A DNA stretch of 64,000 nucleotides from Escherichia coli (GTDB taxonomy: Bacteria; Pseudomonadota; Gammaproteobacteria; Enterobacterales; Enterobacteriaceae). This document shows positions 1 to 50,827 of the stretch, piece by piece (within the stretch, counting starts at the first letter, position 1; every line of letters begins with the position of its first letter). The position numbers were made by a program, and so were the translations under genes. A model generated the notes under the pieces. That model was not told where the DNA came from. It made no database searches and was given only the letters and a program-made list of their open reading frames with translations. The stretch is from the NCBI RefSeq assembly GCF_003790525.1, contig NZ_CP033635.1. One strand, 5' to 3'.

Positions 1-62
1 GTCAGCGTTGAAAACGTACCGGTAAGCGCAGCTACCGCAGTGAGTGCCAGTAACTTTTTCAC
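1..62 (-). CDS. 5' end of a secreted-protein gene (signal peptide MKKLLALTAVAALTGTFSTL...), continues beyond the window start
   Basis: Reverse-strand reading from a GTG at 62..60 gives a typical signal peptide; a GGAGAGG Shine-Dalgarno lies just upstream (revcomp of ~66-72). Product unknown. Confidence 0.35.
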   Translation of the reverse strand, partial: MKKLLALTAVAALTGTFSTL

Positions 63-377
63 AATCCACCTCTCCTGATGTTTCCTTCAGACATATGAAT
101 TTGTCCAATTTTAAGACGGATTTCTCATTGGTAAAATGAATTGTACAGATCGTATCGATCGACAAAGTCGATCGTTAAGCAGAAAAAAGATTTATCGTCA
201 GCGAAGATTTGTTTATGGAAATGACTGAAAAAACGGGTTAAAAAACAGACTGTTCTGTCCATGTGAAACGGGAAGTGACGGGATAAGACGTTATGTGAGG
301 ATTGTTACGGGAAATGCTGTTTTACGTTGTTAAAATGTAACTCCGCAATGAAACTATCCCCTGTGGAGGTCCTGTAA

Positions 378-731
378 ATGAACAAAGCACTCTCTTCCAT
401 TCTGCTCATCTTCGGTATCTGTGCATCATCACTGGCCGCTGAAAAAAACAGAACCGTCAGTTTTCCACGATGTGAAGTACAGGAAGCATCAGCTGTTGCA
501 GCCAGCGTCAAACGGGACTATCTCCAGAAACAGGTATTTCAGTGGAAAGATGATCAGGAAATTCTCGGTCAGCAGCGTCCCGTTGTCTGGGTGAATCTTC
601 GTGAGCCGGTAAATAAAGGTGATAATGTCATCACAGTGCATCTCACTGCCCGTGGAAAGAAAGCAGATATTCAGTATCGTGTGCGCGTTGACTGTAAGAA
701 CGGAAGTGCTACCTGGCAACGCCAGGGATGA
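378..731 (+). CDS. YebF-like small secreted protein (island paralog)
   Basis: 117-aa ORF with signal peptide and conserved motifs (SVKRDY, DCK) resembling E. coli YebF from memory; the neighbourhood is not the K-12 yebF locus. Confidence 0.7.
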   Translation: MNKALSSILLIFGICASSLAAEKNRTVSFPRCEVQEASAVAASVKRDYLQKQVFQWKDDQEILGQQRPVVWVNLREPVNKGDNVITVHLTARGKKADIQYRVRVDCKNGSATWQRQG

Positions 732-777
732 ACGGGTGAAGTTGAATACAGAGCCCGAACGAACGGGCTCTCCATAC

Positions 778-1350
778 TCATCGTATATAACTGAATGCGG
801 TGATGACGTGTTTCACCCCCGCCACGCGACTGGCGATATCAGCAGCAGCCTGTCCTTCCTTCTCTGTAACTCTCCCCATAAGAAAGACTTCACCATTCTC
901 CGTCAGTACCTTTACATCTGACAGTTTCACCCTGCTGCTCTTCAGTAACTGTGCCCGGATTTTTGTGGTCAGCCACGCATCAGTAGCTGTTTTATCAGCC
1001 CGAAGTGGTTTTCCCGTCCTTATTTCATTCCATACCTGCACAGTCCCCTCAACACCATCTGCAATCTGACGGGCTTTTTCACCTGCACTACGGTCTGGTG
1101 CCTGCCCTGTCAGCAGTACAGTGCCCTGGTATGCTGTGACGATGATTCGCGCATCCCCCCTGAGTTGTGAGTCCTTCGACAGCGCACGGCTGACCCTTGC
1201 TTCCAGAATTTCATCATCAATCTGCGTTCCCGCACTTCGGGGGTCCACTGACACTTTAGTACCCACAGCAGCCGTACCGACCAGCGCAGCGGCAACACAA
1301 CCCTGTAACAGCAACAGAGTCGAAAGAAAAGGCAGAAACCAGCGTTGCAT
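778..1350 (-). CDS. DolP/YraP-like BON-domain outer-membrane lipoprotein (island paralog)
   Basis: Lipobox LLLQGC followed by two BON-like repeats; strong resemblance to DolP (YraP). Start placed at the internal ATG (MQRWFLPF...) rather than the upstream ORF-track Met. Confidence 0.7.
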   Translation of the reverse strand: MQRWFLPFLSTLLLLQGCVAAALVGTAAVGTKVSVDPRSAGTQIDDEILEARVSRALSKDSQLRGDARIIVTAYQGTVLLTGQAPDRSAGEKARQIADGVEGTVQVWNEIRTGKPLRADKTATDAWLTTKIRAQLLKSSRVKLSDVKVLTENGEVFLMGRVTEKEGQAAADIASRVAGVKHVITAFSYIR

Positions 1351-1673
1351 GGCAGAATCCTCCACGGTCTGATATCCGGAATTTCGCAGTATGACGGCAG
1401 GAATCAGCCATCACAGATACCACAAGCTTCAGAGAGTAACGAAAACGTTAAAGGAAACGGAAGTGCCTGAATGTAAAGAACGGGGAACCACACAGGGTAT
1501 GGACAAACATAATAACAATAACAGGATGAAAATATTGAATAAAAAATAAAAACCGAGACATCATCATTTGCAGTAATAGCCACCTCCTTACCGAAAAGTG
1601 TGAGTTGCCGGACATTTTTTAAACGCATGATAAGGTCTGATGATACAGTCACCCTGCAACCAGGAGGTACATC

Positions 1674-1967
1674 ATGCGTATACGTGTTTTTGGTTACCGG
1701 CACTGCCCTTCAGTCCATCGCATCATGCATCACGCAACGCGAATCCCCGATGAAATGGAACCGGATGTTGTGTTTATTGATGTCGCGAAGCACAGTGTGA
1801 CGCTGCGGGATATGGCTGACCGTGCAGGCTGCCCGGTGGATAACTTCCCGTGTGTGTTTGTTGATGATGTCTATCTGGAGCCCCTCCACCAGAACCGGGC
1901 AAACCGCACTTTACATACTGCTGAATATTTATTACCGGATATGGACAATCGCTTTCATTCGGGATAA
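1674..1967 (+). CDS. hypothetical protein, possibly glutaredoxin-like fold
   Basis: 97-aa ORF with an N-terminal beta-strand plus CPxx motif (MRIRVFGYRHCPSV) reminiscent of glutaredoxin/NrdH, but without a canonical CxxC; weak call. Confidence 0.3.
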   Translation: MRIRVFGYRHCPSVHRIMHHATRIPDEMEPDVVFIDVAKHSVTLRDMADRAGCPVDNFPCVFVDDVYLEPLHQNRANRTLHTAEYLLPDMDNRFHSG

Positions 1968-2091
1968 AAAATACTGCGCGTTCCTGGTTTATTTTGCGTT
2001 GCTGTCATGACGTGTTTGCCTTCATTGCCGGGATCGCGCACTTTTTGTTATAACTCCCCGGAGGACACTGTCTGTAATCAGATGGAAACCT

Positions 2092-2526
2092 TTATCTCAG
2101 TGATGTCCTGGTTAATACAGAATACTGCCCCGGACCAAGTAACATAATGGCAATCCCCCCCATGAAATACAGCATTTCATTTTCAAGCCCCCACGCCCCT
2201 ACTTCAGTCAGTGTGAAAAACTTCCCTGTTCCGACCAGAAGCGTGGCAACAATCAGTGTCAGCGCATAAATCAGAGCAGCAGGTCTGGTAAATATCCCAA
2301 GAATGATAAGTACCGGAGCCACGATTTCACCAATATACACACCATAGGCAATAAATCCTGGCAAACCAGCATCCTGCAACATTGATATAATCCAGTTGAC
2401 ACCGTGCTCTATTTTGGCCACACCATGGAACAGCATCAATATACCAAATGTCAGTCTCAGCAACAGAAGACCTGTATCCGGGTAGTCTGTCAGTCTGGTA
2501 AAGAACATATTTATTCTTGCTGGCAT
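2092..2526 (-). CDS. DoxX-family inner membrane protein
   Basis: 144-aa hydrophobic ORF with the DoxX-like N-terminal pattern (LLLLRLTFGILMLFHG). Confidence 0.65.
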   Translation of the reverse strand: MPARINMFFTRLTDYPDTGLLLLRLTFGILMLFHGVAKIEHGVNWIISMLQDAGLPGFIAYGVYIGEIVAPVLIILGIFTRPAALIYALTLIVATLLVGTGKFFTLTEVGAWGLENEMLYFMGGIAIMLLGPGQYSVLTRTSLR

Positions 2527-3085
2527 AAAAAACCTCGTTAAACGATAACAGATAATGAAGAAACTATTATCGTTGAGTCGACACCATCAATTGACCAGAT
2601 ATTTCTGACATTCATAATCAAAAAATTTGACAAAACTGTAAACGTTCGCTTTTTATACCAACACAGAATCCACTCAGTCACACAACCTGTATGCGTCATT
2701 TCCTGCTGTTATTTAAAAAATTTCTCACGTAACAGACATTTCAAAAAAACACTAAAAAATACCAGAACAATTAAGATAATATTACGATCAAATAAGTAAA
2801 AGTCTTTTGTCTGTTATTTTTATTTTCTGTGATTACTGTCATTCTTTCACCACTTTAATTAACATCGCATAATAATCCGGGAGGTGGATAAGATATGAAA
2901 ATTAACTATCCTTTACTGGCGCTGGCGTTGAATTATTACCTGTAGAGCTCACTCCGGATGAGCAGAAAGAACCGATGGTGGCTCTTACTCCACTTTTATC
3001 CACTCCTTCACACAGCACTGTCAGTGCAGGTGCCTGAAAGATCTCGTTCCGTCACGGTAAAATGACGCTGGAAAATTCTTCACCA

Positions 3086-3285
3086 GAACTGCTCACTGTG
3101 TTAATTCGTGAACTGACCTGGGGGGAATGCGTGGTACCCTGCTGTACGGACTAATCGGAACCTGTCGGTTGAACGGTATCGATCCGGAAGCGTATCTGCG
3201 CCATATCCTGAACGTTCTACCGGAATGGCCTTCCTGCATGGTTGATGAACTCCTGCCATGGAATATGGTGCTCCCATTGGGGTAA
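3086..3285 (+). mobile_element. IS66-family transposase 3' remnant
   Basis: Translation ...GTLLYGLIGTCRLNGIDPEAYLRHILNVLPEWPSCMVDELLPWNMVLPLG* matches the conserved C-terminal end of IS66-family transposases; no intact upstream ORF. Confidence 0.6.
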
Positions 3286-3411
3286 GCGTCAATACGGCGT
3301 TCGCTTAACTTAACACTTACTTTCAAAGCCTGATATCTGTCCTACGCTTTTCCTCAATACCACATCGCCAGCAGGAAACAACCTAATGCCTGTGTTGGGG
3401 TCTGAATTACT

Positions 3412-3427
3412 AATGATAATCATTTGC
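3412..3427 (+). promoter_or_regulatory. putative Fur box upstream of sitA
   Basis: AATGATAATCATTTGC resembles the Fur consensus GATAATGATAATCATTATC; sit operons are known to be Fur-regulated. Confidence 0.5.
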
Positions 3428-3449
3428 ATTGTGTATAGCTTATGCTATA

Positions 3450-3471
3450 AAACATAGCCGTTGCTATGTTT
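3450..3471 (+). promoter_or_regulatory. putative MntR operator upstream of sitA
   Basis: Near-perfect palindrome AAACATAGC-cgtt-GCTATGTTT, as in MntR sites of mntH/sitA. Confidence 0.55.
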
Positions 3472-3503
3472 GTTCTAATTTTACTCACTATAGGTACTGA
3501 ATT

Positions 3504-4418
3504 ATGCACTCAATAAAAAAAGTAACCATGCTCCTGGGGTGCCTCGCCCTCACCTGCTCGATAGCATTTCAGGCGAGTGCAACTGAAAAATTCAAGGTCA
3601 TTACAACATTTACCATCATCGCAGATATGGCCAAAAACGTGGCTGGAGATGCTGCAGAAGTCTCATCCATAACCAGGCCCGGTGCAGAAATTCATGAGTA
3701 TCAGCCTACCCCTGGCGATATTAAACGTGCGCAGGGGGCACAACTGATTCTCGCCAACGGTATGAATCTGGAATTGTGGTTCCAGCGCTTTTACCAGCAT
3801 CTCAGTGGGGTTCCAGAAGTGATTGTCTCTTCGGGTGTGACGCCAGTAGGGATCACCGAAGGCCCCTACGAGGGAAAACCTAACCCTCATGCCTGGATGT
3901 CGCCAGATAATGCTTTGATTTACGTCGATAATATTCGTGATGCGTTGATAAAATACGATCCGGCAAATGCAAAAACATACCAACGTAATGCCGATACTTA
4001 TAAAGCCAAGATTACCCAAACCCTTGCCCCCCTGCGTAAGCAGATTGCTGAACTCCCTGAGAATAAAAGATGGATGGTCACCAGTGAAGGGGCTTTTTCT
4101 TATCTCGCACGCGATTTGGGGCTAAAAGAGCTTTATCTGTGGCCGATAAATGCCGATCAACAAGGAACACCCCAGCAGGTACGTAAAGTGGTTGATATAG
4201 TGAAGAAAAATAATATCCCAGCGGTATTTAGTGAGAGTACGGTTTCCGATAAACCAGCGCGTCAGGTTGCGCGTGAAACCGGCGCACACTACGGCGGTGT
4301 GCTCTATGTCGATTCCCTGAGCACAGAAAACGGCCCGGTACCTACGTATATCGACCTTCTGAAGGTTACTACCAGTACGCTGGTGCAGGGAATTAAAGCC
4401 GGGAAAAGGGAGAAGTAA
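3504..4418 (+). CDS. sitA: SitA, periplasmic Mn/Fe-binding protein of the SitABCD ABC transporter
   Basis: 304-aa ORF with signal peptide and metal-binding SBP cluster-9 features; matches SitA from memory. Confidence 0.85.
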   Translation: MHSIKKVTMLLGCLALTCSIAFQASATEKFKVITTFTIIADMAKNVAGDAAEVSSITRPGAEIHEYQPTPGDIKRAQGAQLILANGMNLELWFQRFYQHLSGVPEVIVSSGVTPVGITEGPYEGKPNPHAWMSPDNALIYVDNIRDALIKYDPANAKTYQRNADTYKAKITQTLAPLRKQIAELPENKRWMVTSEGAFSYLARDLGLKELYLWPINADQQGTPQQVRKVVDIVKKNNIPAVFSESTVSDKPARQVARETGAHYGGVLYVDSLSTENGPVPTYIDLLKVTTSTLVQGIKAGKREK

Positions 4419-4560
4419 TGATGCAATCTGCGGGTATTGTCGTTAATGGCGTTACTGTCACCTGGCGAAACGGGCAGAAAGCACTGCGCGATGCATCCTT
4501 CACAGTACCAGGCGGATCTATTGCCGCTCTGCTTGGGGTAAACGGTTCCGGTGAAATCGT
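4418..4560 (+). pseudogene. sitB: sitB remnant (ATPase truncated just after the Walker A region)
   Basis: ORF begins like SitB (GIVVNGVTVTWRNGQKALRDASFTVPGGSIAALLGVNGSG) then diverges into unrelated sequence; sitC and sitD are absent. Confidence 0.7.
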
Positions 4561-4900
4561 CTTGACACGTTTCTGGGCTCGTCATCAGCGGTTGTTGCGA
4601 ATGATCGCCGCCCTGCGATGGTTGATTTATTTTATTGCGCCCCGGCGTCTGCCTTGCCAGGTACCGGAGGCGGGCTCTGAAGGACTGAGTAGGGTGAGCG
4701 CGTCAGGCCGCGAAGTACTGACACGGGAGTTTGTGGCAGGCAGTGAAGTCCTGACCAGGGTAAGGGAGGCGCTGACGTGCAGGTCCTGACTGTCAGCCAG
4801 GCGCATGGTGACTGACTTTCTCAATAACCCGCTGTCAGGCGCTCAACGCCCGACAGCAGGCCATGGCCCGGTGTGCAAAGACCTGACGGCAGGTGTTGTG

Positions 4901-5221
4901 TCACCCGGAGAAGGTAAATCCCTCAAGAGGCAGCAGCTCAGCCAGTCGGTCCTCAGGCCACTCCGGCAGGCGCGTCAGTACGTCCGTCAGCCAGGCATGT
5001 GGCTCCAGACCATTACGCTTTGCTGTTTCCAGAAGACTCATTATCTGTGCCGCGCGTTTGCCGGCCATCAGCGAGCCTGCGAATAACCATGCCTTTCGCC
5101 CCAGCGTGACCGGGCGGATGGCTCGTTCGCAGATATTGTTGTCCGGTGGCACAGAGCCATCATCCAGAAAACGGCACAGCTCATCAGGTCGTTTCAGGAT
5201 ATAGCTGATAGCCTTATGCAA
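4901..5221 (-). mobile_element. IS66-family transposase C-terminal remnant
   Basis: 106-aa ORF (...ICERAIRPVTLGRKAWLFAGS...LETAKRNGLEPHAWLTDVLTRLPEW...) matches the IS66-family transposase C-terminus; the 5' part of the gene is missing. Confidence 0.7.
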
Positions 5222-5694
5222 TGGACTGTCTGGCGGACCGCCTGCTCCTGCTCTTGACGGTTTTTTGCCTTGTATATCAGGTTATAGACGAGAAGATTGT
5301 CGTCTTCGTGGTTTCCGTCAGGAAAAGAGAATGCTCAAAAGTGTATAGTAAGGCGGTCAAACGCATTCGCTGAAATAAGATGTGTCACTTCAGCTTTGCG
5401 TTAACACGACTATTTTTCATCACTCAAGCGGTAGTCCCGGTGACTCACACGTATACGAGTCACCGCTTCAGATTTGAGTATCCGAATTTAAATCAGGGAC
5501 ACAATGGAAGAAGCGAACACTTTCGCATCCTCTTCCTGCAATTCGCAGACTGTCACTCTGCGTCCAGTTCCCTCTTTCCTCAGCAGGTACCAACGCCAGG
5601 CTCCCGACAAAGGTTGACCTGAAACGACCAAATACACAGGAAACAAAATACTGTCAGACAGAACGAGGCGTGCTATACATCACGCCTCAATGCT

Positions 5695-6684
5695 TCAGTG
5701 GCTGATTTTTTTCAGCTGTTCTTCACTCAATCCCGTGATTTTCATGATGGTCTGAAGCCCCATTCCTTCAGCCAACATATTACGCGCCGTTTCCAGTTTG
5801 CCTTCCAGTTGTCCTTCGAGTCGCCCTTCGGCACGGCCTTCCATTCTGCCTTCCATTCTGCCTTCTAGCTTACCGCGCTCCATACCCTGGGCAATACCGC
5901 GCTCAAATCCCTTGACTTCCCCTTCCTGCTTCAGTTGTTCAGCCAGTGTCATTATGTTGCCCTCATGCTGTGGCAGCCGCTCCGCCAGCGTCTGCAAAAA
6001 CCTTACCGTCACATGTTCACTGCCGTTCAGCAGATAGTGGAACAGAGCCTTCGCCAGCTCTTCATTCAGTGAAGTCTGTATCAGCTGAACCAGCCTGTCC
6101 ATCTGCAGCATGATGTCGCGGCTGCGGCTGTGTTTCATCAGCAGCGTCAGTGCCCCCATTCGGCGGTGTTGCATTATCTCATCGTCATCCAGTACCGTCA
6201 CGTCCACCAGGTGGAACGGTCTGGTGTAGATTTTAGCAGCAAGTTCCGGATTTCTGAAACACTCCAGCCAGTTCATGCTGTACGGGTACGGGCTCCGCTC
6301 ACCGTGGTAGAATAACAGCGGGATCACCAGCGGCAGCTCATGGTGCTGTTCAAAGTGACGCTGCATCGCCGCCACCGCATATCTGAGCATCCTGAACGCC
6401 ATAAACGCGTTTTCCGTACTCTGGTGTTCCGCGAGGCAATAAATATACCCCTCCTCACCGCTGACGGTCTTCATGCTGAACAGCGCATCGCACGCATACT
6501 GTTTCAGATCCTGGTCCACAAAGGTACAGGGCTCCAGCCGCAGCGTCGACAGATCACACAACTGCCGGTATTCCGCCGGAAGATGCAGTTCAACAAAATC
6601 ACGGGCCACCTCTGCTGAGGCCATAAACGCCCTGAAGGCGGCATCATGCGGCGTGGGCGTATTTTTCTCTTTCCTGCTGCTCAC
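5695..6684 (-). CDS. Rpn-family recombination-promoting nuclease (YhgA-like putative transposase)
   Basis: 329-aa ORF with PDDEXK-like N-terminal region and the characteristic C-terminal EGRxEGR repeat tail of RpnA-E paralogs. Confidence 0.8.
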   Translation of the reverse strand: MSSRKEKNTPTPHDAAFRAFMASAEVARDFVELHLPAEYRQLCDLSTLRLEPCTFVDQDLKQYACDALFSMKTVSGEEGYIYCLAEHQSTENAFMAFRMLRYAVAAMQRHFEQHHELPLVIPLLFYHGERSPYPYSMNWLECFRNPELAAKIYTRPFHLVDVTVLDDDEIMQHRRMGALTLLMKHSRSRDIMLQMDRLVQLIQTSLNEELAKALFHYLLNGSEHVTVRFLQTLAERLPQHEGNIMTLAEQLKQEGEVKGFERGIAQGMERGKLEGRMEGRMEGRAEGRLEGQLEGKLETARNMLAEGMGLQTIMKITGLSEEQLKKISH

Positions 6685-6918
6685 TGTTTATCTCTTCTGA
6701 ACCAGGTAACATTAACAGAACATGTTTCAGGATATCCGCGCAGTGCGGAACATTACGGCTCACCACTGTGACGGCGGATCATCGCCACCCAGTATCCGAC
6801 AGACCCCTTACTTTGTTCGTAAACATCCTTCCTGCCCCCCTGAATCTCCAGACAACCAATATCACTTAAATAAGTGATAGTCTTAATACTAGTTTTTAGA
6901 CTAGTCATTGGAGAACAG

Positions 6919-7284
6919 ATGATTGATGTCTTAGGGCCGGAGAAACGCAGACGGCGTACCACACAGGAAAAGATCGCAATTGTTCAGCAGAGTTTTGAAC
7001 CGGGAATGACGGTCTCCCTTGTAGCCCGGCAACACGGTGTGGCAGCCAGCCAGCTATTTCTCTGGCGCAAGCAATACCAGGAGGGAAGTCTTACTGCTGT
7101 GGCCGCAGGAGAACAGGTCGTTCCTGCCTCTGAACTTGCTGCTGCCATGAAGCAGATTAAAGAACTCCAGCGCCTGCTCGGCAAAAAAACGATGGAAAAT
7201 GAACTCCTCAAAGAAGCCGTTGAATATGGACGGGCAAAAAAGTGGATAGCGCACGCGCCCTTATTGCCCGGGGATGGGGAGTAA
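6919..7284 (+). CDS. insC: IS2 transposase OrfA (InsC)
   Basis: [56 protein letters not shown]... is the IS2 OrfA sequence. Confidence 0.9.
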
Positions 7285-8147
7285 GCTTAGTCAGCCGTTG
7301 TCTCCGGGTGTCGCGTGCGCAGTTGCACGTCATTCTCAGACGAACCGATGACTGGATGGATGGCCGCCGCAGTCGTCACACTGATGATACGGATGTGCTT
7401 CTCCGTATACACCATGTTATCGGAGAGCTGCCCACGTATGGTTATCGTCGGGTATGGGCGCTGCTTCGCAGACAGGCAGAACTTGATGGTATGCCTGCGA
7501 TCAATGCCAAACGTGTTTACCGGATCATGCGCCAGAATGCGCTGTTGCTTGAGCGAAAACCTGCTGTACCGCCATCGAAACGGGCACATACAGGCAGAGT
7601 GGCTGTGAAAGAAAGTAATCAGCGATGGTGCTCTGACGGGTTCGAGTTCCGCTGTGATAACGGAGAAAAACTGCGAGTCACGTTCGCGCTGGACTGCTGT
7701 GACCGTGAGGCACTGCACTGGGCGGTCACTACGGGCGGCTTCAACAGTGAAACAGTACAGGACGTCATGCCAGGAGCGGTGGAACGCCGCTTCGGCAACG
7801 ATCTTCCGGCGTCTCCAGTAGAGTGGCTGACGGATAATGGTTCATGCTACCGGGCTAATGAAACACGGCAGTTTGCCCGGATGTTGGGGCTTGAACCGAA
7901 GAGCACGGCGGTGCGGAGTCCGGAGAGTAACGGCATAGCAGAGAGCTTCGTGAAAACGATAAAGCGTGACTACATCAGTATCATGCCTAAACCAGACGGG
8001 TTAACGGCAGCAAAGAACCTTGCAGAGGCGTTCGAGCATTATAACGAATGGCATCCGCATAGTGCACTGGGTTATCGCTCGCCACGGGAATATCTGCGGC
8101 AGCAGGCCAGTAATGGGTTAAGTGATAACAGGTGTCTGGAAATATAG
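7242..8147 (+). CDS. insD: IS2 transposase OrfB (InsD)
   Basis: 301-aa ORF with integrase-core catalytic region, overlapping orfA in the -1 frame as in IS3-family elements. Confidence 0.9.
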
Positions 8148-8199
8148 GGGCAAATCCACCTGAATCTGAGGCAGCACCTGGCACGGCTGGGACGGAAGT

Positions 8200-8441
8200 C
8201 GCTGTCGTTTTCAAAATCGGTGGAGCTGCATGACAAAGTCATCAGGCATTATCTGAACATAAAACACTATCAATAAGTTGGAGTCATTACCGTGTTCCCG
8301 ACAGACGACTCGGTGAAAAAAGTGGTGTGGCTGGCAATCCAGTCTGCGTCCCAGAAATGGACGATGCCGTTGAAGGACTGGCGAATGGCAATGAGCCGCT
8401 TTATTATCGAGTTCGGTGACCGCCTGGACGGTCACTTCTGA
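8200..8441 (+). mobile_element. IS256-family transposase 3' remnant
   Basis: Translation FPTDDSVKKVVWLAIQSASQKWTMPLKDWRMAMSRFIIEFGDRLDGHF* matches the conserved C-terminal tail of IS256-family transposases; only this tail is present, immediately right of IS2. Confidence 0.5.
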
Positions 8442-8473
8442 GAAAAGGCATTTACACAGAATCCTAAACAGGC

Positions 8474-9444: not shown

Positions 9445-9512
9445 GGTCAGAATGTCCTCTGTGAGATTTATGAATGTTGGGCAAATGCGGGTGAATCTGC
9501 TGAGCTGAGCTT

Positions 9513-11149: not shown

Positions 11150-11209
11150 GATGAGAGATCTCCGTTGATTTGGATTGACTTCACATCATTAATCACCGCG
11201 GTAAAACTT

Positions 11210-12720: not shown

Positions 12721-12722
12721 CA

Positions 12723-13946
12723 TCATAAACACCATTTAAAACCATTATCCTGAACATCATACAACAATATATTTTTACTAAAGCATGAATTGTATATTTC
12801 TATTAATTCAGGAAAATTATCAGGATTCACCTTTAAATTCACCTGAATGTTACGCCTAATTTCACCCAGCAGTTTTTCATGCGTGAATTTTATTATTTCT
12901 TTATCATAATCTATAAATTCACACATGTTTTTTATGAATTCAAACCCTTTTCCTGTATACAGTTTGATGAATGCCACAAGAGCAAACATTTCAAGATGCA
13001 GCCATAATGCCACGTGAGTTTTTCGCAAAGTATAAAAAATTGAATTCACCTCTTTTTTACTTATTGCTCTTTTGTACTGTGAGTGTGCCAGATTCAGTAG
13101 TGGCAATTCTCTCTCGATAAATGAAAGTGAAAAAGGCGGGTAAATTGATGTCGGAAATATTTTAGGTCTTATGATATTTTCTATTTCCACCATAAATCTA
13201 TCCATAGAAAGAAAATCATTTTCTTTTTTTATTCTGGTATAGAGACCGCCTTTATTTCTTACTGCGACTTTTTTTCGTGCTACCCCCCCCAACACTTCCT
13301 CTAATTGTTTATTTATCTTCGTATCATTAAATACAACCATTCTTCTTATCATCCTGGGAAGGATGATAATATCAGAGCTTGAATCACTTGAACGGTAATT
13401 ATTATTGATCCATGCAACTTCAAGTTGAAGTATCGGAACATTAAATTCTCTGGGGTTAATAACTCTCTGATATTGTTTTTTGTATGCGTTTTTATTAAGA
13501 TATTCTCTGCTGTAGAGAAACTTATAGCAATATAATCTGACAATATCCTTTATGTAAGATTTAAATGAGTCACCTGTAACAGATATATTTTTTCTGCTCA
13601 GTAACTCCTGTGTATTGAGCCATTCCCGTGACCGGAGTACTCCCTTATGAAGACTTTTTCTTACTTGCATTGAACTGCGCAATTGATGTAATATTTTTGC
13701 GTCCTCAACAATTCTCTTTCCCGTTTGATTTCTTGCAGCATCTATTACTCTGTCAAATATCTCCCGGTCCAGACTTTTGTCATATTTACTGATTATACGA
13801 CAAATATTCCTGACCCGACGGTTCTCTTTATTTCGTTTCCATAACTGATAATGATCATCACATAACCTCAGGGCATTTGCCTCATCAAATTCTGAAACAG
13901 GATTGCTGCATTTTTTATTCCGACAGATACCTTTGTTTTTAGCCAT
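12723..13946 (-). CDS. hypothetical protein, 407 aa, very low GC, N-terminal Cys/His cluster
   Basis: Long uninterrupted ORF in a region of roughly 30% GC (hand count on sampled blocks); K/N/I-rich; N-terminus GICRNKKCSNP...LCDDHY suggests a zinc-ribbon-like motif. No family recognised. Confidence 0.6.
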   Translation of the reverse strand: MAKNKGICRNKKCSNPVSEFDEANALRLCDDHYQLWKRNKENRRVRNICRIISKYDKSLDREIFDRVIDAARNQTGKRIVEDAKILHQLRSSMQVRKSLHKGVLRSREWLNTQELLSRKNISVTGDSFKSYIKDIVRLYCYKFLYSREYLNKNAYKKQYQRVINPREFNVPILQLEVAWINNNYRSSDSSSDIIILPRMIRRMVVFNDTKINKQLEEVLGGVARKKVAVRNKGGLYTRIKKENDFLSMDRFMVEIENIIRPKIFPTSIYPPFSLSFIERELPLLNLAHSQYKRAISKKEVNSIFYTLRKTHVALWLHLEMFALVAFIKLYTGKGFEFIKNMCEFIDYDKEIIKFTHEKLLGEIRRNIQVNLKVNPDNFPELIEIYNSCFSKNILLYDVQDNGFKWCL

Positions 13947-14000
13947 ACTCTTCTTCCCGTCAATGGAAAATTTTTCACGTCCATATTACCTGACTGAGAG

Positions 14001-14021
14001 ACCGGATTAATGTGATCCGGT
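14001..14021 (+). promoter_or_regulatory. inverted repeat in the divergent intergenic region
   Basis: ACCGGAT-taatgtg-ATCCGGT perfect 7-bp arms, between the divergent 407-aa ORF and the GTPase gene. Confidence 0.3.
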
Positions 14022-14046
14022 TCAGTGAAATCAACAGGATACCGGT

Positions 14047-14931
14047 ATGTCATTCAGCCATTCTTCCCTTTCCGCACACGTAAAATCACATCTGACCTTT
14101 CTTCCTGAAGAAATACGCCAGAAAATCCTTGAATATCTTCACAGCGTCATTCAGTACGAACCCGTGATTGGCATTATGGGTAAATCCGGTGCCGGAAAAA
14201 GCAGCCTGTGCAATGCCATTTTTCAGTCCCGTGTCTGCGCCACGCATCCACTGAACGGCTGCACCCGTCAGGCTCATCGTCTTACCTTTCAGCCTGGTGA
14301 ACGCAGAATGACGCTCGTCGATCTGCCCGGCACTGGCGAAACACCACAGCATGATCAGGAATACCGGGCACTTTACCGTCAGTTACTGCCCGAACTGGAT
14401 CTGATTATCTGGATCCTGCGTGCTGATGAACGTGCGTATGCTGCCGACATCGCCATGCATCAGTTTTTACTGAATGAAGGTGCCGATCCCTCGCGTTTTC
14501 TGTTTGTTCTCAGCCATGCTGATCGCATCCACCCGGCTGAAGAATGGAACAGCCAGAGCAACACGCCATCCCGTCAGCAGGAACTCTCACTGGCAACAGT
14601 AACAGCCCGGGTGGCAACCCTGTTCCCTTCATCATTTCCGGTACTCCCCATAGCTGCCCCTGCAGGCTGGAATCTTCCGGCATTTGTGTCACTGATGATC
14701 CACGCCCTGCCACCACAGGCAACCAGCACGGTTTATTCGCATATCCGGAATGAAAAGCGCACTGCGCAGGATCAGCAACACGCACAGCAGGCTTTTGGTG
14801 ACGCCATCGGCCAGAGCTTTGACGCGGCCATTGCCCGGTTCAGCTTTCCGGCCTGGATGCTGCAGCTTCTGCGTAAAGCCCGTGATCGCATTATCCGCCT
14901 GCTGGTCACACTGTGGGATCGCCTGTTCTGA
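14047..14931 (+). CDS. YeeP/YfjP/YkfA-family GTPase (50S ribosome-binding GTPase domain)
   Basis: 294-aa ORF with P-loop GIMGKSGAGKSS and overall resemblance to K-12 prophage GTPases YfjP/YeeP. Confidence 0.85.
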   Translation: MSFSHSSLSAHVKSHLTFLPEEIRQKILEYLHSVIQYEPVIGIMGKSGAGKSSLCNAIFQSRVCATHPLNGCTRQAHRLTFQPGERRMTLVDLPGTGETPQHDQEYRALYRQLLPELDLIIWILRADERAYAADIAMHQFLLNEGADPSRFLFVLSHADRIHPAEEWNSQSNTPSRQQELSLATVTARVATLFPSSFPVLPIAAPAGWNLPAFVSLMIHALPPQATSTVYSHIRNEKRTAQDQQHAQQAFGDAIGQSFDAAIARFSFPAWMLQLLRKARDRIIRLLVTLWDRLF

Positions 14932-15116
14932 ATTTCCCCGCTTTTTGACCGGCACAGACGATGACCAGGGAACGCATTTCCGGCGGCTTTACCACAATGC
15001 TGAAGGGCTTTTGGTAAACCTCATTCATTTCATCCATCAGGCAGCGTCTTCTCCGGGAGATGCGGCTTTTTCATTGATTACGTCAGTCAGTCTTAACCAC
15101 TGATAAGGAGCAAAGT

Positions 15117-15935
15117 ATGCGATTAGCCAGTCGTTTTGGTTATGCGAACCAGATACGCCGTGACCGTCCGCTGACACATGAAGAGCTGATGCACCATGTG
15201 CCCGGGATTTTCGGGGAGGATAAGCACACCTCCCGGAGCCGGAACTATACATACATCCCCACCATCACCGTGCTGGAAAGCCTGCAACGGGAAGGCTTTC
15301 AGCCGTTCTTTGCCTGCCAGACCCGCGTGCGTGACCCGGGACGCCGGGGATACACAAAGCACATGCTGCGTCTGCGCCGTGACGGGGAGATAAACGGACA
15401 GCATGTCCCTGAAATCATCCTGCTCAACTCCCATGACGGCACCTCCAGCTACCAGATGCTGCCGGGTTACTTCCGGTTCGTGTGTCAGAACGGATGTGTC
15501 TGTGGTCAGTCTCTCGGAGAGGTGCGTGTCCCGCACCGGGGAGACGTGGTGGACAGGGTCATTGAAGGGGCTTACGAGGTGGTGGGCGTGTTTGACCGGA
15601 TAGAGGAAAAGCGTGATGCCATGCAGTCACTGATTTTACCACCACCGGCTCGTCAGGCGCTGGCACAGGCCGCCCTGACTTACCGTTATGGTGACGAACA
15701 TCAGCCCGTCACCACCGCCGACATTCTGACACCACGACGCCGGGAGGATTACGGTCAGGACCTGTGGAGTGCTTATCAGACCATCCAGGAGAATATGCTG
15801 AAAGGCGGGATTTCCGGTCGCAGTGCAAAAGGAAAACGTATCCATACCCGGGCCATTCACAGCATTGATACCGATATAAAACTCAACCGCGCATTGTGGG
15901 TGATGGCAGAAACGCTGCTGGAGAGCATGCGCTGA
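15117..15935 (+). CDS. DUF932 protein (YfjQ-like)
   Basis: 272-aa ORF closely resembling CP4-57 YfjQ (MRLASRFG...YTYIPTI...FFACQ.RVRD...). Confidence 0.85.
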   Translation: MRLASRFGYANQIRRDRPLTHEELMHHVPGIFGEDKHTSRSRNYTYIPTITVLESLQREGFQPFFACQTRVRDPGRRGYTKHMLRLRRDGEINGQHVPEIILLNSHDGTSSYQMLPGYFRFVCQNGCVCGQSLGEVRVPHRGDVVDRVIEGAYEVVGVFDRIEEKRDAMQSLILPPPARQALAQAALTYRYGDEHQPVTTADILTPRRREDYGQDLWSAYQTIQENMLKGGISGRSAKGKRIHTRAIHSIDTDIKLNRALWVMAETLLESMR

Positions 15936-16016
15936 TGCCGTTTCCCTGAGTGAGGGAATCATTCAGCTTTCGTTCCTGAAAAACACACATTTATTTGTTA
16001 TTTAAGGAGTTATCTC

Positions 16017-16457
16017 ATGAAAACCGTTTCTCAGAATACCCCCACAATTTATTCAGCTACAACACCAGAGAATAATCCGCCTCAGTTGGTTGCCAGCCTC
16101 GTCCCTGATGAACAGCGCATCAGCTTCTGGCCGCAGCATTTTGGCCTCATTCCACAGTGGGTGACCCTGGAGCCCCGTGTCTTCGGCTGGATGGACCGTC
16201 TGTGCGAAGACTACTGCGGTGGTATCTGGAATCTGTACACCCTGAACAACGGCGGCGCATTTATGGCCCCCGAACCGGATGATGATGATGACGAAACATG
16301 GGTACTGTTCAATGCCATGAACGGTAACCGCGCTGAAATGAGCCCGGAAGCCGCCGGCATTGCTGCCTGTCTGATGACGTACAGTCATCATGCCTGTCGT
16401 ACGGAGTGTTATGCCATGACGGTTCATTATTACCGTCTGCGGGATTACGCCCTGTAG
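16017..16457 (+). CDS. antirestriction protein (YfjX/KlcA/ArdB-like)
   Basis: 146-aa ORF with the conserved FWPQHFGLIPQW...GWMDRLCEDYCGGIW motif block. Confidence 0.8.
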   Translation: MKTVSQNTPTIYSATTPENNPPQLVASLVPDEQRISFWPQHFGLIPQWVTLEPRVFGWMDRLCEDYCGGIWNLYTLNNGGAFMAPEPDDDDDETWVLFNAMNGNRAEMSPEAAGIAACLMTYSHHACRTECYAMTVHYYRLRDYAL

Positions 16458-16511
16458 CATCCGGAATGCAGCGCCATTATGCGCATCATTGACTGAAAGG
16501 GGGCCGGAACA

Positions 16512-16988
16512 ATGCAACAGATTTCCTTTCTGCCCGGAGAAATGACAACCAGAGAGCGCAGCCTCATTCAGCGGGCCCTGAAAGCCCTGGACCGCCATCT
16601 TCATGAACCCGGCGTGGCCTTCACCTCCACCCGTGCGGCACGGGAATGGCTGATTCTGAACATGGCGGGACTGGAGCGGGAAGAGTTCCGGGTGCTGTAC
16701 CTGAACAACCAGAATCAGCTGATTGCCGGTGAAACCCTCTTCACCGGCACCATCAACCGCACGGAAGTCCATCCCCGGGAGGTGGTTAAACGCGCCCTGT
16801 ACCACAATGCCGCTGCCGTGGTGCTGGCACACAATCATCCGTCCGGTGAAGTCACACCCGGTAAGGCAGACCGGCTTATCACTGAACGTCTGGTACAGGC
16901 ACTGGCCCTGGTGGATATCCGGGTGCCGGACCATCTGATAATCGGTGGCAGCCGGGTGTTCTCCTTTGCCGAACACGGTCTGCTTTAA
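16512..16988 (+). CDS. RadC-like JAB-domain protein (YeeS/YfjY/YkfG-like)
   Basis: 158-aa ORF with JAMM motif HNHPSG...; typical island position after the antirestriction gene. Confidence 0.85.
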   Translation: MQQISFLPGEMTTRERSLIQRALKALDRHLHEPGVAFTSTRAAREWLILNMAGLEREEFRVLYLNNQNQLIAGETLFTGTINRTEVHPREVVKRALYHNAAAVVLAHNHPSGEVTPGKADRLITERLVQALALVDIRVPDHLIIGGSRVFSFAEHGLL

Positions 16989-17077
16989 TCCGTCACCGTC
17001 ACAACCACCTTCATATTGTCACTTCAGTTTCTCTTTCTCAGCTGTTTCTCACTTTCACATTCAGGAGGACTGTTCTC

Positions 17078-17299
17078 ATGAAAATCGTCACCCGTGGTGA
17101 AGCCATGCGCGTTCACCGTCAGTATCCGTCATCCCGTCTTTTTCCGTTCTGCACCGGTAAGTACCGCTGGCACGGCGGCACTGAGGCGTATACCGGTCGT
17201 GAAGTGCAGGATATCCCCGGCGTACTGGCCGTGTTTGCCGAACGCCGCAAGGACAGTTTTGGCCCGTATGTCCGGCTGATGAGCGTCACCCTGAACTGA
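17078..17299 (+). CDS. DUF987 protein (YeeT/YkfH-like)
   Basis: 73-aa ORF MKIVTRGEAMRVHRQ...; size and position match DUF987 genes of CP4-type islands. Confidence 0.7.
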   Translation: MKIVTRGEAMRVHRQYPSSRLFPFCTGKYRWHGGTEAYTGREVQDIPGVLAVFAERRKDSFGPYVRLMSVTLN

Positions 17300-17303
17300 G
17301 TCA

Positions 17304-17960
17304 GTGGAGATGCTGATGAGCAGCATTATCACCACCACCGTGTATACGCTGAATGAACTTTCCGCCACAGCACGGGAAAAAGCCCGCGGCTGGTACCGTC
17401 AGCATCATGCTGACAGCCGCTGGTATGAAAACGTGTATGAGGACTTCAGGGCGGTCTGTGAGATTGTCGGGATTGTCCTCCGCCAGCGTGTTATCCGGCT
17501 CAGCAGCGGCAGGTTTATGGAAGAGCCGTGCATCTGGTTCAGCGGATTCTGCAGCCAGGGGGACGGAGCCTGTTTTGAAGGGCGCTGGCACTGGCAGCCG
17601 GCAACAGCCAGGCGAGTCCGGGAATATGCCCCGCAGGACCGTGAGCTTCATCGTATCACGGATGCCCTGCAGGCGGTGCAGAAGCATAACTTCCGGCAGT
17701 TACAGGCTGAAATCCGTCACCGGGGACGCTACTGCCATCCGTACAGCATGGATATCACCGTCACCCGGGACAGCCCGACCGGACAGGCAATGACAGCCGG
17801 CGCGGAAACCGTTGTCTGTGACGCCCTGCGGGACCTGGCCTTCTGGTTATACAGTCAACTGGAAAACGAGTACGACTGGCTGACCTCAGATGACGCCGTG
17901 GATGAGGCGCTTCTCATCAACGGATACACCTTCACCGAAGCCGGTCTGCGCGCCGGCTGA
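17304..17960 (+). CDS. hypothetical protein, 218 aa, unrecognised family
   Basis: ORF starts 5 nt after the DUF987 stop and lies between DUF987 and the CbeA-like antitoxin; Cys/Trp/His-rich (CIWFSGFCSQGDGACFEGRWHW). Confidence 0.5.
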   Translation: MEMLMSSIITTTVYTLNELSATAREKARGWYRQHHADSRWYENVYEDFRAVCEIVGIVLRQRVIRLSSGRFMEEPCIWFSGFCSQGDGACFEGRWHWQPATARRVREYAPQDRELHRITDALQAVQKHNFRQLQAEIRHRGRYCHPYSMDITVTRDSPTGQAMTAGAETVVCDALRDLAFWLYSQLENEYDWLTSDDAVDEALLINGYTFTEAGLRAG

Positions 17961-18010
17961 CCCGTCATTGTTAAAACCATTCTTAACCGATTATCAGTGA
18001 GGACTTTATC

Positions 18011-18388
18011 ATGTCAGACACACTCACCGGGACAACGCATCCCGACGACAACAGCGACCGCCCCTGGTGGGGGCTGCCCTGCACCGTGACGCCCTGTTTC
18101 GGTGCCCGTCTGGTGCAGGAGGGTAACCGCCTGCATTACCTTGCAGACCGCGCCGGCATCAGAGGCCGGTTCAGCGACGCAGATGCGTACCACCCGGACC
18201 AGGCCTTTCCGCTGCTGATGAAACAGCTGGAACTCATGCTCACCAGTGGTGAACTCAGTCCCCGCCATCAGCATACCGTCACACTGTATGCGAAAGGGCT
18301 GACCTGCGAAGCCGACACCCTCGGCAGTTGTGGTTACGTGTATATCGCCATTTATCCGACACCGGCAACACCCGGAACCACCGCATAA
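18011..18388 (+). CDS. cbeA: CbeA/YeeU-family type IV antitoxin
   Basis: [52 protein letters not shown]... is near-identical to YeeU/CbeA as recalled. Confidence 0.85.
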
Positions 18389-18434
18389 CCCCGGACAGCA
18401 CTTCTTTATCACCACCTGTTACAGAGTACTTAAG

Positions 18435-18809
18435 ATGAAAACATTCCCCGACACACATGTACGGGCAACATCGCGCTGCCCGTCTCCGGTTGAAATCTGG
18501 CAGACACTGCTCACCCGGTTGCTGGACCAGCACTACGGCCTCACGCTGAATGACACACCGTTCGCCGATGAACGTGTGATTGAACAGCATATTGAGGCAG
18601 GTATTTCACTGTGTGATGCGGTGAACTTTCTCGTGGAAAAATACGCACTGGTGCGTACCGACCAGCCGGGATTCAGTGCCTGCACCCGCTCTCAGTTAAT
18701 CAACAGCATTGATATCCTCCGGGCCCGCCGGGCAACCGGCCTGATGACCCGCAGCCACTACCGAATGGTGAGCAACATCACCCTGGGTAAACACTGTGAG
18801 GTGAAATGA
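18435..18809 (+). CDS. cbtA: CbtA/YeeV-family type IV toxin
   Basis: ...[65 protein letters not shown]... matches CbtA/YeeV. Start set at the ATG at 18435 rather than the longer ORF-track start. Confidence 0.85.
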
Positions 18810-19297
18810 TGAAACTGTCCCTGACGCTGGAAGCAGACAGCGTTAACGTCCGGGCACTGAACATGGGGCGCATTGTCGCTGACGTCGATGGTGTTAATCT
18901 CGCTGAACTGATTAACGTGGTCTGCGATAACGGCTGTTCCCTTCGTGTTGTTGATGAATCTGACCGGACCTCAGCAGACTGCATGCCACCATTTACTGCC
19001 CTTACCGGCATACGCTGCAGTACCGCACATATCACGGAACAGGACAATGCCTGGCTGTACTCGCTGTCGCATCAGACGAATGACAACGGCGAATCAGAAT
19101 GGATTCATTTTACAGGCAGCGGATATCTGTTACGTACTGATGCGTGGTCGTACCCGGCTCTGCGGCTTAAACGCCTGGGGCTGTCAAAAACCTTCCGCCG
19201 TCTGGTTGTCACACTTATCCGGCGTTATGGCGTCAGTCTCATTCATCTGGATGCCGGCGCTGAATGTCTGCCGGGTTTACCCACTTTCGACTGGTAA
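18806..19297 (+). CDS. YeeW-like protein (DUF5983)
   Basis: 163-aa ORF overlapping the cbtA stop, in the position occupied by yeeW in CP4-44. Confidence 0.65.
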
Positions 19298-19316
19298 CCG
19301 GGACAAAAGACACCGT

Positions 19317-19514
19317 ATGAAATCATTAACCACAGAAACGGCACCGGATATTCTGATTGCGTGGCTGCAGGACAATATCGACTGCGGCTCCGGCATTATC
19401 TTCGACAACGATGAGGATAAAACGGATTCGGCAGCACTGCTGCCCTGTATCGAACAGGCCAGAGCGGATATCCGCACCCTGCGCCACCTGCAGCTTCAGC
19501 ACCAGAACCGGTGA
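19317..19514 (+). CDS. DUF957 small protein
   Basis: 65-aa ORF MKSLTTETAPDILIAWLQDNIDCGSGIIFDNDEDKTD..., recalled as the DUF957 family of island ends. Confidence 0.55.
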   Translation: MKSLTTETAPDILIAWLQDNIDCGSGIIFDNDEDKTDSAALLPCIEQARADIRTLRHLQLQHQNR

Positions 19515-19609
19515 GTCTCACTCATCATCTCACTCACCACGATTCATTCCCCTGACGCCAGTCCGAATACGGCTGGCGTTTTCATTTATAAACCACAAGG
19601 AAAAATGTA

Positions 19610-20458
19610 ATGTCTGATATCACAATCCCTTATCCGGAAGCGGTCAACGGACATACGGACGTTATCTGCTCCACAGATATCCGGCACGTTGTGACGGTAC
19701 GGAATGAAGCACTGCAACAAACCGAAAGGGTTATCCGGCAACTGGCAGAAATCTCAGCAATGACAGAAAGCATAGGCGGTAAAACGGCGCGGGACTGGGC
19801 CGTGAAACAGGATTTTCGCTGTGGCTGCTGGCTGATGGAAAAACCGGAAACCGCAATGAAAGCCATCACCCGGAACCTTGACCGTGAAATCTGGCGTGAC
19901 CTGATGCAACGCTCCGGGATGCTGAGTCTGATGGATGCACAGGCGCGTGATGAATGGTACCGTTCACAGGAGGACGATAATTTCCCGGAAATCAGCGAAG
20001 CGAATATCCTGAGCACGTCTGAACAACTGCACCGTAACAGGGATGAAATGGCTGAACGGGGCGTCATCAACCTCTTCAGGGGACTGAGCCGGACGCAAAA
20101 CAGCGGGTCACCCTGTAAATTCGGCAGCAAGATTATCCTCAACAACCTGGTGAAATGGGACTGGTGGGGATTTGGTCTGAACCATGGCCCGCAGGCCGGG
20201 CGGCTTGCCGACCTGGAAAGAATGTTGTATCTGTTCAGTGGTAAACCCATACCCGATTACAGGGACAATATCCTCATTCGTCTGGATGAGCACATCCGGT
20301 CCGTTCAGGGTGAAGCGTGTTATGAAGATGAGATGTTCAGCATCAGATACTTCAGGAAAGGCTCTGCGCATATCACGTTTAAACACCCGGAACTGGTGGA
20401 GAAGCTGAATGCTGTTCTGGCGAAACATTATTCGGTAAAGTTCCATTCTTCTGTATAA
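19610..20458 (+). CDS. hypothetical protein, 282 aa (possibly DUF4942-like)
   Basis: Long ORF with a good SD (AAGGAAAA); family assignment from memory is uncertain. Last gene before the core genome. Confidence 0.5.
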   Translation: MSDITIPYPEAVNGHTDVICSTDIRHVVTVRNEALQQTERVIRQLAEISAMTESIGGKTARDWAVKQDFRCGCWLMEKPETAMKAITRNLDREIWRDLMQRSGMLSLMDAQARDEWYRSQEDDNFPEISEANILSTSEQLHRNRDEMAERGVINLFRGLSRTQNSGSPCKFGSKIILNNLVKWDWWGFGLNHGPQAGRLADLERMLYLFSGKPIPDYRDNILIRLDEHIRSVQGEACYEDEMFSIRYFRKGSAHITFKHPELVEKLNAVLAKHYSVKFHSSV

Positions 20459-20661
20459 ACTTACAGATCACGGGTATTGTGTCTCGTCCTGAACAGGGCC
20501 GACAGGTATACTGCATTCGCTGAGCCATTACAGATAATGCCTCAACTGAGTTCAATCTACCTCCATGTACAACAACAATACGATGGGGGCTACATTGGGG
20601 GCTATACTTTCAAGTAAAACTGATATAACCAAGATTAAACAATAAGATAGAGAATTTTCAC

Positions 20662-20716
20662 CATTCCCCTCTGGGGAGAGGATTAGGGTGAGGGGCGCAA
20701 ACCCGCTCCGGGGCCA
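20662..20716 (+). repeat. GC-rich palindromic repeat-like element upstream of glnP
   Basis: CCATTCCCCTCTGGGGAGAGGATTAGGGTGAGGGGCGCAAACCCGCTCCGGGGCC contains nested inverted repeats resembling E. coli intergenic palindromic units. Confidence 0.3.
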
Positions 20717-20765
20717 TTAATTACCCTGAATTTGATTATTTACACCACGGTAACAGGAACAACAT

Positions 20766-34613: not shown

Positions 34614-34751
34614 TATTGTGGCATTTTTCGGTTTTCAGGGGTAATGGTTTTTCTGTTTCTGGAAAGCGGCTCGCAATAACGTTTTCTGGCTGTGGGGTTT
34701 TCTCGCAACAGAAGAAACATCATTGCGTAGTAAAAGACAATGCACGCAGGC

Positions 34752-50824: not shown

Positions 50825-50827
50825 GTA

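Follow-up and report, generated by a model that had tools for sequence, protein, structure and literature searches.

In E. coli K-12, the CP4 elements are sited at tRNA or tmRNA genes (thrW, ssrA). Non-tRNA sites of pathogenicity islands have been described in uropathogenic E. coli, namely gln (glnP-glnH) and ula (ulaE-ulaD), together with integrases described as insertion-site-specific (Biggel et al., 2020, Nat Commun, PMC7686366). Separately, the intrastrand-triplex motif TMECO was defined in work that found neither integrases nor transposases near TMECOs and left the cause of local variability open (Holder et al., 2015, NAR, PMC4666352). Literature searches turned up no relevant work tying integrases or islands to BoxC or TMECO.

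The gln operon is thus an already published pathogenicity-island site, and the structure in the stretch of DNA analysed here (64,000 nucleotides, referred to as the window) is a routine island. It resembles the published gln islands in its chromosomal site, in a predicted integrase at one end and in its mosaic, variable cargo (PMC7686366). It differs from them in that the pap operon and other classical virulence operons are lacking from the part within the window, where sitA and a sitB stub are all that is present. With the K-12 elements CP4-6, CP4-44 and CP4-57 it shares a predicted P4-type integrase with an arm-binding domain and, in the same order and orientation, AlpA, YagK/YfjJ, a YeeP/YkfA-like GTPase, DUF932, antirestriction, RadC-like, DUF987, CbeA/CbtA and DUF5983/DUF957/DUF4942 genes. 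Unlike the K-12 CP4 elements, it is inserted in a palindromic repeat between two genes of one operon.

Alignment to K-12 MG1655 places the edge of the island at 20664/20665. From 20665 to 64000 the window is colinear with K-12 at 97-98% identity, the sole larger gap being 34680-35603, and no K-12 match is found to the left of 20665. This lack of a K-12 match, together with homology to the island arms in CM2 and OZ039352.1, identifies window 1-20664 as the right-hand end, 20.7 kb long, of a genomic island of the P4-integrase type, whose left ~6.2 kb, including attL and int, is predicted to lie outside the window. From 20665 onward the window is 100% identical to SMS-3-5, and its first 101 bp there (20665-20765, plus strand) are retained from the native glnH-glnP spacer of 138 bp. 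The break point lies 38 bp downstream of the glnH stop codon, within the BoxC/TMECO palindromic repeat of the spacer. The preliminary description had rightly seen an accessory island left of glnP and K-12 order to its right; its placement of the edge at 20765, adjoining the glnP start codon, is rejected in favour of the boundary 101 bp upstream.

Both downstream genes of the operon, glnP (20766-21425) and glnQ (21422-22144) on the plus strand, are intact, with 219/219 and 240/240 positions matched to the NCBIfam equivalogs NF007028 and NF007027 above the curated cut-offs. They are severed from the glnH promoters: island DNA parts glnP from the position of glnH, and the contiguity of glnHPQ under those promoters is not kept. 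As first noted, glnH is absent from its expected position, and no portion of K-12 glnH is matched anywhere within the 64-kb window; likewise, ARAGORN finds zero tRNA genes in the window and no integrase occurs among the island ORFs there. Of 5426 complete E. coli genomes, 18 share this identical island/glnP junction and 5401 have an uninterrupted spacer. With this recurrence in 18 genomes, the junction is neither a chance feature nor an assembly artefact. Among complete E. coli genomes, most relatives lack the island and carry the precise empty site.

The left part of the island begins with a paralogue of the YebF family of secreted proteins (378-731, plus strand; NCBIfam NF041240, 115 bits, above cut-off), the exact protein also adjoining glnH-int in several assemblies. 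It is followed on the minus strand by a DolP/BON-domain lipoprotein paralogue (778-1350; NCBIfam NF008247, 279 bits; PGAP 'dolP' in CM2) and a DoxX-family membrane protein (2092-2526; PGAP and Pfam PF07681 on the identical protein). The plus-strand segment 3504-4567, with NCBIfam metal-binding SBP matches, holds an intact sitA (3504-4418) and then a 5' fragment of sitB of about 50 codons, which matches the SitB equivalog NF011630 at positions 1-50 of 274 only; PGAP annotates 'sitA' plus partial sitB in both CM2 and LH50-c. Two minus-strand features come next, a C-terminal fragment of an IS66-family transposase (4901-5221; NF033517 positions 304-387 of 387 only) and an Rpn-family recombination-promoting nuclease/putative transposase (5695-6684; TIGR01784, 175.7 bits, above cut-off). 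An IS2 with intact orfA and orfB (6832-8158, plus strand; NF006928 and NF006918 full-length) then precedes IS1 and IS256 fragments, also annotated in CM2, that reach to 8475.

To the right of this point, an AlpA-family regulator/excisionase-like protein (9208-9444; Pfam PF05930, E = 2.6e-10), a YagK/YfjJ-family ('inovirus Gp2 family') protein (10418-11149; PF11726 YagK_YfjJ_C on the exact protein, PGAP name in H1) and a 407-aa hypothetical protein (12723-13946) are encoded on the minus strand. The last of these, an ORF in a low-GC (33-35%) segment, has no family match and is frameshifted in H1 and CM2. On the plus strand follow genes for a GTPase (14047-14931), DUF932 (15117-15935), an antirestriction protein (16017-16457), a RadC-like protein (16512-16988) and DUF987 (17078-17299), all carrying PGAP names on H1/CM2, with additional NCBIfam matches for the GTPase and the RadC-like protein; H1 and CM2 DNA is 94-99% identical across 14047-17299. 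The CbeA/YeeU antitoxin (18011-18388; Pfam PF06154, PGAP), the CbtA toxin (18435-18809; Pfam PF06755, PGAP), DUF5983 (18806-19297; PGAP), DUF957 (about 19357-19617; PGAP) and DUF4942 (19610-20458; Pfam PF13708, PGAP) complete the series and are co-oriented with glnP. An Rfam scan of the island returned nothing. The AlpA-type regulator and the CP4-type conserved module are thereby confirmed (Pfam AlpA, CbtA, CbeA and DUF4942; RadC and GTPase), and the contents named in the preliminary description, from IS remnants through AlpA and YagK/YfjJ-like genes to a CP4-type module, are all present.

Comparison with relatives indicates that the two parts are arms of a longer island. Across window 1-8475, identity is 99.9% to the CM2 island's left arm and 99.965% to OZ039352.1, in which glnH-int lies to the left, and window 8476-20696 is 95-99.5% identical to the CM2 right arm. 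In the CM2 record the match to window 939-8475 ends at 1734537 and the match from window 8476 onward starts at 1800098, marking 8475/8476 as a joint where ~66 kb of CM2-type cargo is missing. The island here is a shortened mosaic, predicted to total about 27 kb: its two arms, left and right, are those of a ~92-kb CM2/OZ039352-type island and meet at 8475/8476 beside IS fragments. This variant is absent from the complete genomes searched (the closest, LH50-c, reaches 87% and lies at another locus), the joint does not occur in the relatives found by exact YebF and DoxX protein look-ups, and the exact YagK/YfjJ protein is found only on contigs of 5-7 kb. We further note that the same island family occupies many sites and that arms are shuffled between its islands.

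At the other end of the island, the annotation of each of the 18 genomes that share the junction places glnH next to a P4-type tyrosine integrase of 397 aa (Arm-DNA-bind_3, Phage_int_M and Phage_integrase, PF13356 + PF22022 + PF00589; matching PRK09692). The assemblies with the 99.9% identical left arm also carry this integrase, and a full-length 248-aa glnH adjoins the same left arm in 7-8 assemblies, drafts included. The order in 23CRST013 is glnH, int, about 40 kb, DUF4942, glnP. In the near-identical relatives, 6162 bp separate the equivalent of window position 1 from the stop codon of glnH, which puts attL and glnH 6.1-6.2 kb leftward. An integrase end beyond the left edge, as had been proposed, is what these relatives display.

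The point of insertion is further defined by the attachment site. The 20.4-20.8 kb interval, where att sites or direct repeats had been envisaged, contains at 20665-20678 (plus strand) the attR copy of a 14-bp core, TCCCCTCTGGGGAG. This core was read directly at both junctions of the H1 island, attL and attR of 23CRST013, and is single in the empty SMS-3-5 site. A second att copy was not detected when 1-21500 was searched for repeats, in line with an attL outside the window. Just inside the island, at 20584-20605 (plus strand), two tandem TGGGGGCTAY motifs are candidate arm-type integrase binding sites of attR; the motif occurs nowhere else in the 64 kb, where 0.1 matches would be expected. 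Relatives carry the same pair on their attL side, upstream of int, and both pairs may be arm-type sites.

The core forms part of a BoxC/TMECO type-A repeat that served as attB, of which the window keeps the right part only (20665-20699, plus strand). Both SMS-3-5 and K-12 carry the complete element, CCCTCTCCCCT(C/A)TGGGGAGAGGATTAGGGTGAGGG, at their empty site. A regular expression for the type-A motif (C-rich block, loop, G-rich block, TTA, G-rich block) matches both empty sites as well as TMECO 9 (fabI-ycjD) and TMECO 13 (alx-sstT) of Holder et al. (2015, PMC4666352), where members of this island family are also inserted. The glnH-glnP copy has GGA instead of GGG in the second block and is absent from the K-12 table of that study, and RNA folding of the empty spacer yields a 9-bp hairpin only. 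In contrast to that study, which found no integrases near TMECOs, the repeat acts here as an attachment site. Integration at a tRNA or tmRNA 3' end, typical of P4-type integrases, is not seen here, where attB is an intergenic BoxC/TMECO repeat and the window has no tRNA; such a target is not strictly defining for these integrases. The ula site was considered as another BoxC and rejected, as it is part of the ulaE gene, at the 5' end, and only mimics the core.

These comparisons make it very likely that the window contains a P4-type (CP4-like) island inserted site-specifically in the glnH-glnP spacer, with glnH displaced leftward and not lost. In this model, the tyrosine integrase would recombine the core TCCCC-N3-GGGGAG, that is, the BoxC/TMECO hairpin 38 bp past the glnH stop, placing glnH-attL-int at the far end and leaving attR-glnPQ at the near one, with the window starting inside the island. 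Judging by the near-identical relatives, the remaining ~6.2 kb leftward would encode an outer-membrane protein, a hypothetical protein, EcsC, an ISAs1 fragment, a TPR protein and int, followed by attL and an intact glnH. The predicted attL junction joins CCCTCTCCCCTCTGGGGAGG to ATCTATTGATATC, with the glnH stop 38 bp further on, and the attP of the excised circle is predicted to contain TTTTCACCATTCCCCTCTGGGGAGGATCTATTG. Both glnH and int are very probably present in this genome, with glnH intact ~6 kb beyond the left edge. Of the two fates first offered for glnH, deleted or displaced, displacement is the one that fits an insertion 38 bp past its stop codon, with a clean core duplication read in 23CRST013.

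The island may have arrived, together with its gln flanks, on a large chromosomal segment acquired from a carrier strain through homologous recombination, and not by de novo integration; we consider this route unlikely, but it deserves some weight. The junction is identical in distant genomes, the glnP-ybiO core flank is 100% identical to several unrelated strains, and the arm shuffling within this many-site family also points that way, but segment transfer concerns the arrival route only and leaves the identity of the structure unchanged.

Integration as described could also have been followed by IS-mediated inversion or transposition that moved the left arm, int and glnH, leaving the operon halves megabases apart. 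The window island does bear IS2 and several IS fragments, and CP182371 shows that the adjacency of the glnH and glnPQ ends is not guaranteed: its island is split, with glnH-int positioned at 2.57 Mb, 1.6 Mb away from the glnP end (4.19 Mb), and its homology to the window stops at the IS2 ends. However, the standard left arm continues on both sides of the window IS2, with 1-8475 unbroken at 99.9%, and in 17 of the 18 complete genomes the two ends are on the same strand at a distance of 40-115 kb, making such a move here quite improbable. IS rearrangement is a real secondary risk, as CP182371 illustrates, but, contrary to one of the first suggestions, it is not the cause of the junction itself. 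Least probable of all is a deletion of glnH, with or without the integrase end, leaving the strain without the periplasmic glutamine-binding protein as the preliminary description had offered as one option: the window has no glnH and deletions do occur in the island, as the one at 8475/8476 attests, but the glnP junction is an exact attR with 101 bp of spacer kept, the left arm shows no interruption as far as the edge of the window, and glnH is missing in 0/18 complete genomes and in none of the further assemblies with the arm at the gln site.

Beyond the gln site, the same integrase is found at five or more further loci, of which no fewer than three are BoxC/TMECO repeats, and the attL sequence is identical at six loci. 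Whereas integrases of the published islands were described as site-specific (PMC7686366), one genome has the identical protein, WP_001131672.1, encoded at glnH and a second has it at lptG. We tentatively suggest, at somewhat less than even confidence, that the integrase has no single attachment site and recognises the CCCC-N3-GGGG hairpin of BoxC/TMECO repeats along with look-alikes such as the ulaE 5' end. With a dispersed repeat as its attachment site, one integrase could therefore seed islands at many loci. If so, each E. coli genome would offer dozens of possible landing sites, and part of the unexplained 'genetic instability' at TMECO loci would have a concrete mechanism; targeting of this kind would also create repeats for large inversions (as seen in CP182371).

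Multi-site recognition would also mean that glnPQ expression at the gln site hangs on read-through from island genes. A scan of 19500-21000 by a crude consensus test found no sigma-70-like promoter and no terminator-like site between DUF4942 and glnP. We infer that any transcription of glnPQ, ~27 kb from the glnH promoters, would arise as read-through out of the co-oriented genes running from cbeA-cbtA to DUF4942, and high-affinity glutamine uptake in carriers would then hinge on island transcription reading into glnPQ. The insertion physically splits a three-gene transporter operon in these carriers, which make up 0.3% of complete genomes.

A megablast comparison with 5426 complete E. coli genomes puts the start of core homology in the window at position 20665 instead of the glnP start codon, and the 101 bp preceding glnP are therefore native spacer. 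The preliminary description had placed an island directly against glnP; the island stands, while its boundary moves from 20765 to 20665. The colinearity with K-12 that it reported from glnP rightwards is borne out over 20665-64000, with 97-98% identity (local BLAST against MG1655 800000-849900), with the core genes in the order glnP, glnQ, ybiO, rlmF and so on to bio, ybhC and ybhJ. Both glnP (20766-21425) and glnQ (21422-22144) match NCBIfam equivalogs over their full length. It was also right about what is missing: K-12 glnH has no match anywhere in the window by local BLAST, ARAGORN finds no tRNA in the window, and no integrase is present among its island ORFs. The empty-site genome SMS-3-5 shows 100% identity with the window sequence from 20665 on. 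Its glnH-glnP spacer measures 138 bp, and glnH ends 38 bp short of the point corresponding to 20665, which places the insertion in the spacer and not in glnH.

We further note that island DNA adjoins glnP exactly as in the window in 18 complete genomes of the same megablast set, and that glnH is annotated directly beside a tyrosine integrase in all 18. One of these relatives, 23CRST013, is 99.5% identical to the window across the junction and has the order dps, glnH, 397-aa integrase, ~40 kb of island, DUF4942, glnP; its GlnH (WP_000843866.1) is the same protein as in SMS-3-5. These observations, together with the break in the spacer, argue against the loss of glnH raised earlier, since in the relatives the gene lies intact past the far island end with the att site duplicated. 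They agree with the other option, displacement, and we infer that glnH in the window's own genome has been displaced, not lost. A secondary rearrangement that moved the glnH-int end away from the glnP end is possible in principle, because in NZ_CP182371.1 a distance of 1.6 Mb separates the two ends (glnH-int at 2566345-2568145, island and glnP at 4193879-4197879), and the match to the window stops at the IS2 ends. This suggests a large IS2-associated inversion parting glnH from glnPQ in that genome; the IS2 of the window, however, is flanked left and right by the standard sequence, which speaks against such a rearrangement here. None of the relatives supports an outright deletion of glnH.

Two of the 20 genomes with an interrupted glnH-glnP locus are not accounted for by the gln island. 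FORC_042 (NZ_CP025318.1) matches only the first 318 bases, the glnH part, of a glnH-glnP query (3380566-3380883), and its locus is interrupted in some other way than by this island.

The empty spacer contains a hairpin with a 9-bp stem, CCTCTCCCC-TCT-GGGGAGAGG. The hairpin belongs to a 35-bp element, CCCTCTCCCCT(C/A)TGGGGAGAGGATTAGGGTGAGGG, found in the empty sites of SMS-3-5 and K-12, that fits the BoxC or 'TMECO type A' repeat (Holder et al., 2015; PMC4666352). Alignment of the 23CRST013 junctions with the empty site identifies a 14-bp core, TCCCCTCTGGGGAG, that is single in the empty site and present at both island ends; its attR copy occupies 20665-20678 in the window. 23CRST013 carries at glnH the same integrase protein that CM2 carries at lptG|yjgR, and an identical attL (…CCCCTnTGGGGAGG|ATCTATTGATATC), read in records L004 and L009-L028, occurs at six chromosomal loci: glnH, lptG, fabI-ycjD, alx-sstT, a ytfQ-like binding-protein gene beside ppa, and a DUF1287 gene. 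Two of these, fabI-ycjD and alx-sstT, appear in the published K-12 table as TMECO 9 and TMECO 13. Judged by sequence, the attachment site of this island family is the BoxC/TMECO type-A repeat (window 20665-20699; L002 7996-8030; L007 47192-47226; L038 806-840; L039 1164-1199).

At the ula site, an integrase 85% identical uses CTCCCCGCCGGGGAG, a sequence within the 5′ end of ulaE (L040 1500-1530, NZ_CP156706.1). This sequence only resembles the core and is not a BoxC repeat. At this insertion ulaE is annotated with 816 nt, and K-12 ulaE is presumably longer. Biggel et al. (2020; PMC7686366) count the gln operon among the six sites where papGII pathogenicity islands integrate; because the site is published and the junction occurs in 18 RefSeq genomes, the gln-site island is already known as a kind. 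As a structure the island is ordinary and its site is published; the biology of its attachment site is modestly interesting. Holder et al. (2015; PMC4666352) found no integrases near TMECOs and left their local instability unexplained, and a non-exhaustive literature search found no paper linking BoxC/TMECO repeats to integrases. The presence of one integrase protein at two loci and of one attL at six, and the look-alike ula site, seem less noted so far.

The integrase carries Arm-DNA-bind_3, Phage_int_M and Phage_integrase domains, a P4-type architecture, and matches PRK09692. The only two TGGGGGCTAY motifs in the window (20584-20605) lie 60-80 bp inside attR, and a second pair lies directly upstream of int at attL in relatives; these pairs are candidate arm-type sites. 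CM2 keeps the chromosomal loop TTT at attL and has TAT at attR, a pattern that would fit strand exchange right of the hairpin loop, within GGGGAG.

The island genes had been correctly listed. Cargo comprises a YebF paralogue, a DolP paralogue, DoxX, sitA with a sitB stub, and an Rpn nuclease, interspersed with an IS66 fragment, IS2, an IS1 fragment and an IS256 fragment. Regulatory and hypothetical genes encode a UCP030791 protein, AlpA, YagK/YfjJ and a low-GC 407-aa protein, and a CP4-type module in one orientation encodes GTPase, DUF932, antirestriction, RadC-like, DUF987, CbeA, CbtA, DUF5983, DUF957 and DUF4942 proteins. The 407-aa ORF, without family match, falls in a low-GC stretch (12000-14000, 33-35%); it is intact in the window and LH50-c and frameshifted in 23CRST013 and CM2.

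Over window 1-8475, identity is 99.9% with the CM2 island's left arm and 99.965%, with 3 mismatches, with OZ039352.1. Left of this arm, OZ039352.1 and seven other assemblies carry genes for an outer-membrane protein, a hypothetical protein, EcsC and a TPR protein, then int, attL and a 248-aa glnH product, with an ISAs1 fragment also called in several of the eight; in these relatives the counterpart of window position 1 is separated from the glnH stop by 6162 bp. For window 8476-20696 the match is to the CM2 island's right arm, and the joint between the two arms adjoins the fragments of IS1 and IS256 that follow IS2. Because the ~66 kb of cargo that CM2 carries between the arms (S6 autotransporter, lld genes, carbohydrate genes) is absent, the alignments make the window's island a shortened mosaic of ~27 kb.

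Transcription of glnHPQ starts from promoters upstream of glnH, and the island puts ~27 kb between these and glnPQ here, and 40-115 kb in relatives. A consensus scan of 19500-21000 gave no sigma-70-like promoter, nor did it show a terminator-like site from DUF4942 to glnP, and the final island genes, starting at 14047, lie on the glnP strand. Weak read-through expression of glnPQ is predicted as the likeliest state.

The sole larger gap in K-12 colinearity by local BLAST is 34680-35603, between dinG and rhlE, where K-12 has ybiA. The window, like 23CRST013, instead has a toxin-antitoxin pair on the minus strand, a RelE/ParE-family toxin (34752-35033) and a PaaA2-family antitoxin (35033-35473). 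A known element, the molybdenum cofactor riboswitch RF01055 (103 bits), lies at 50812-50956 in the moaA-ybhK intergenic region on the minus strand, that of moaA.
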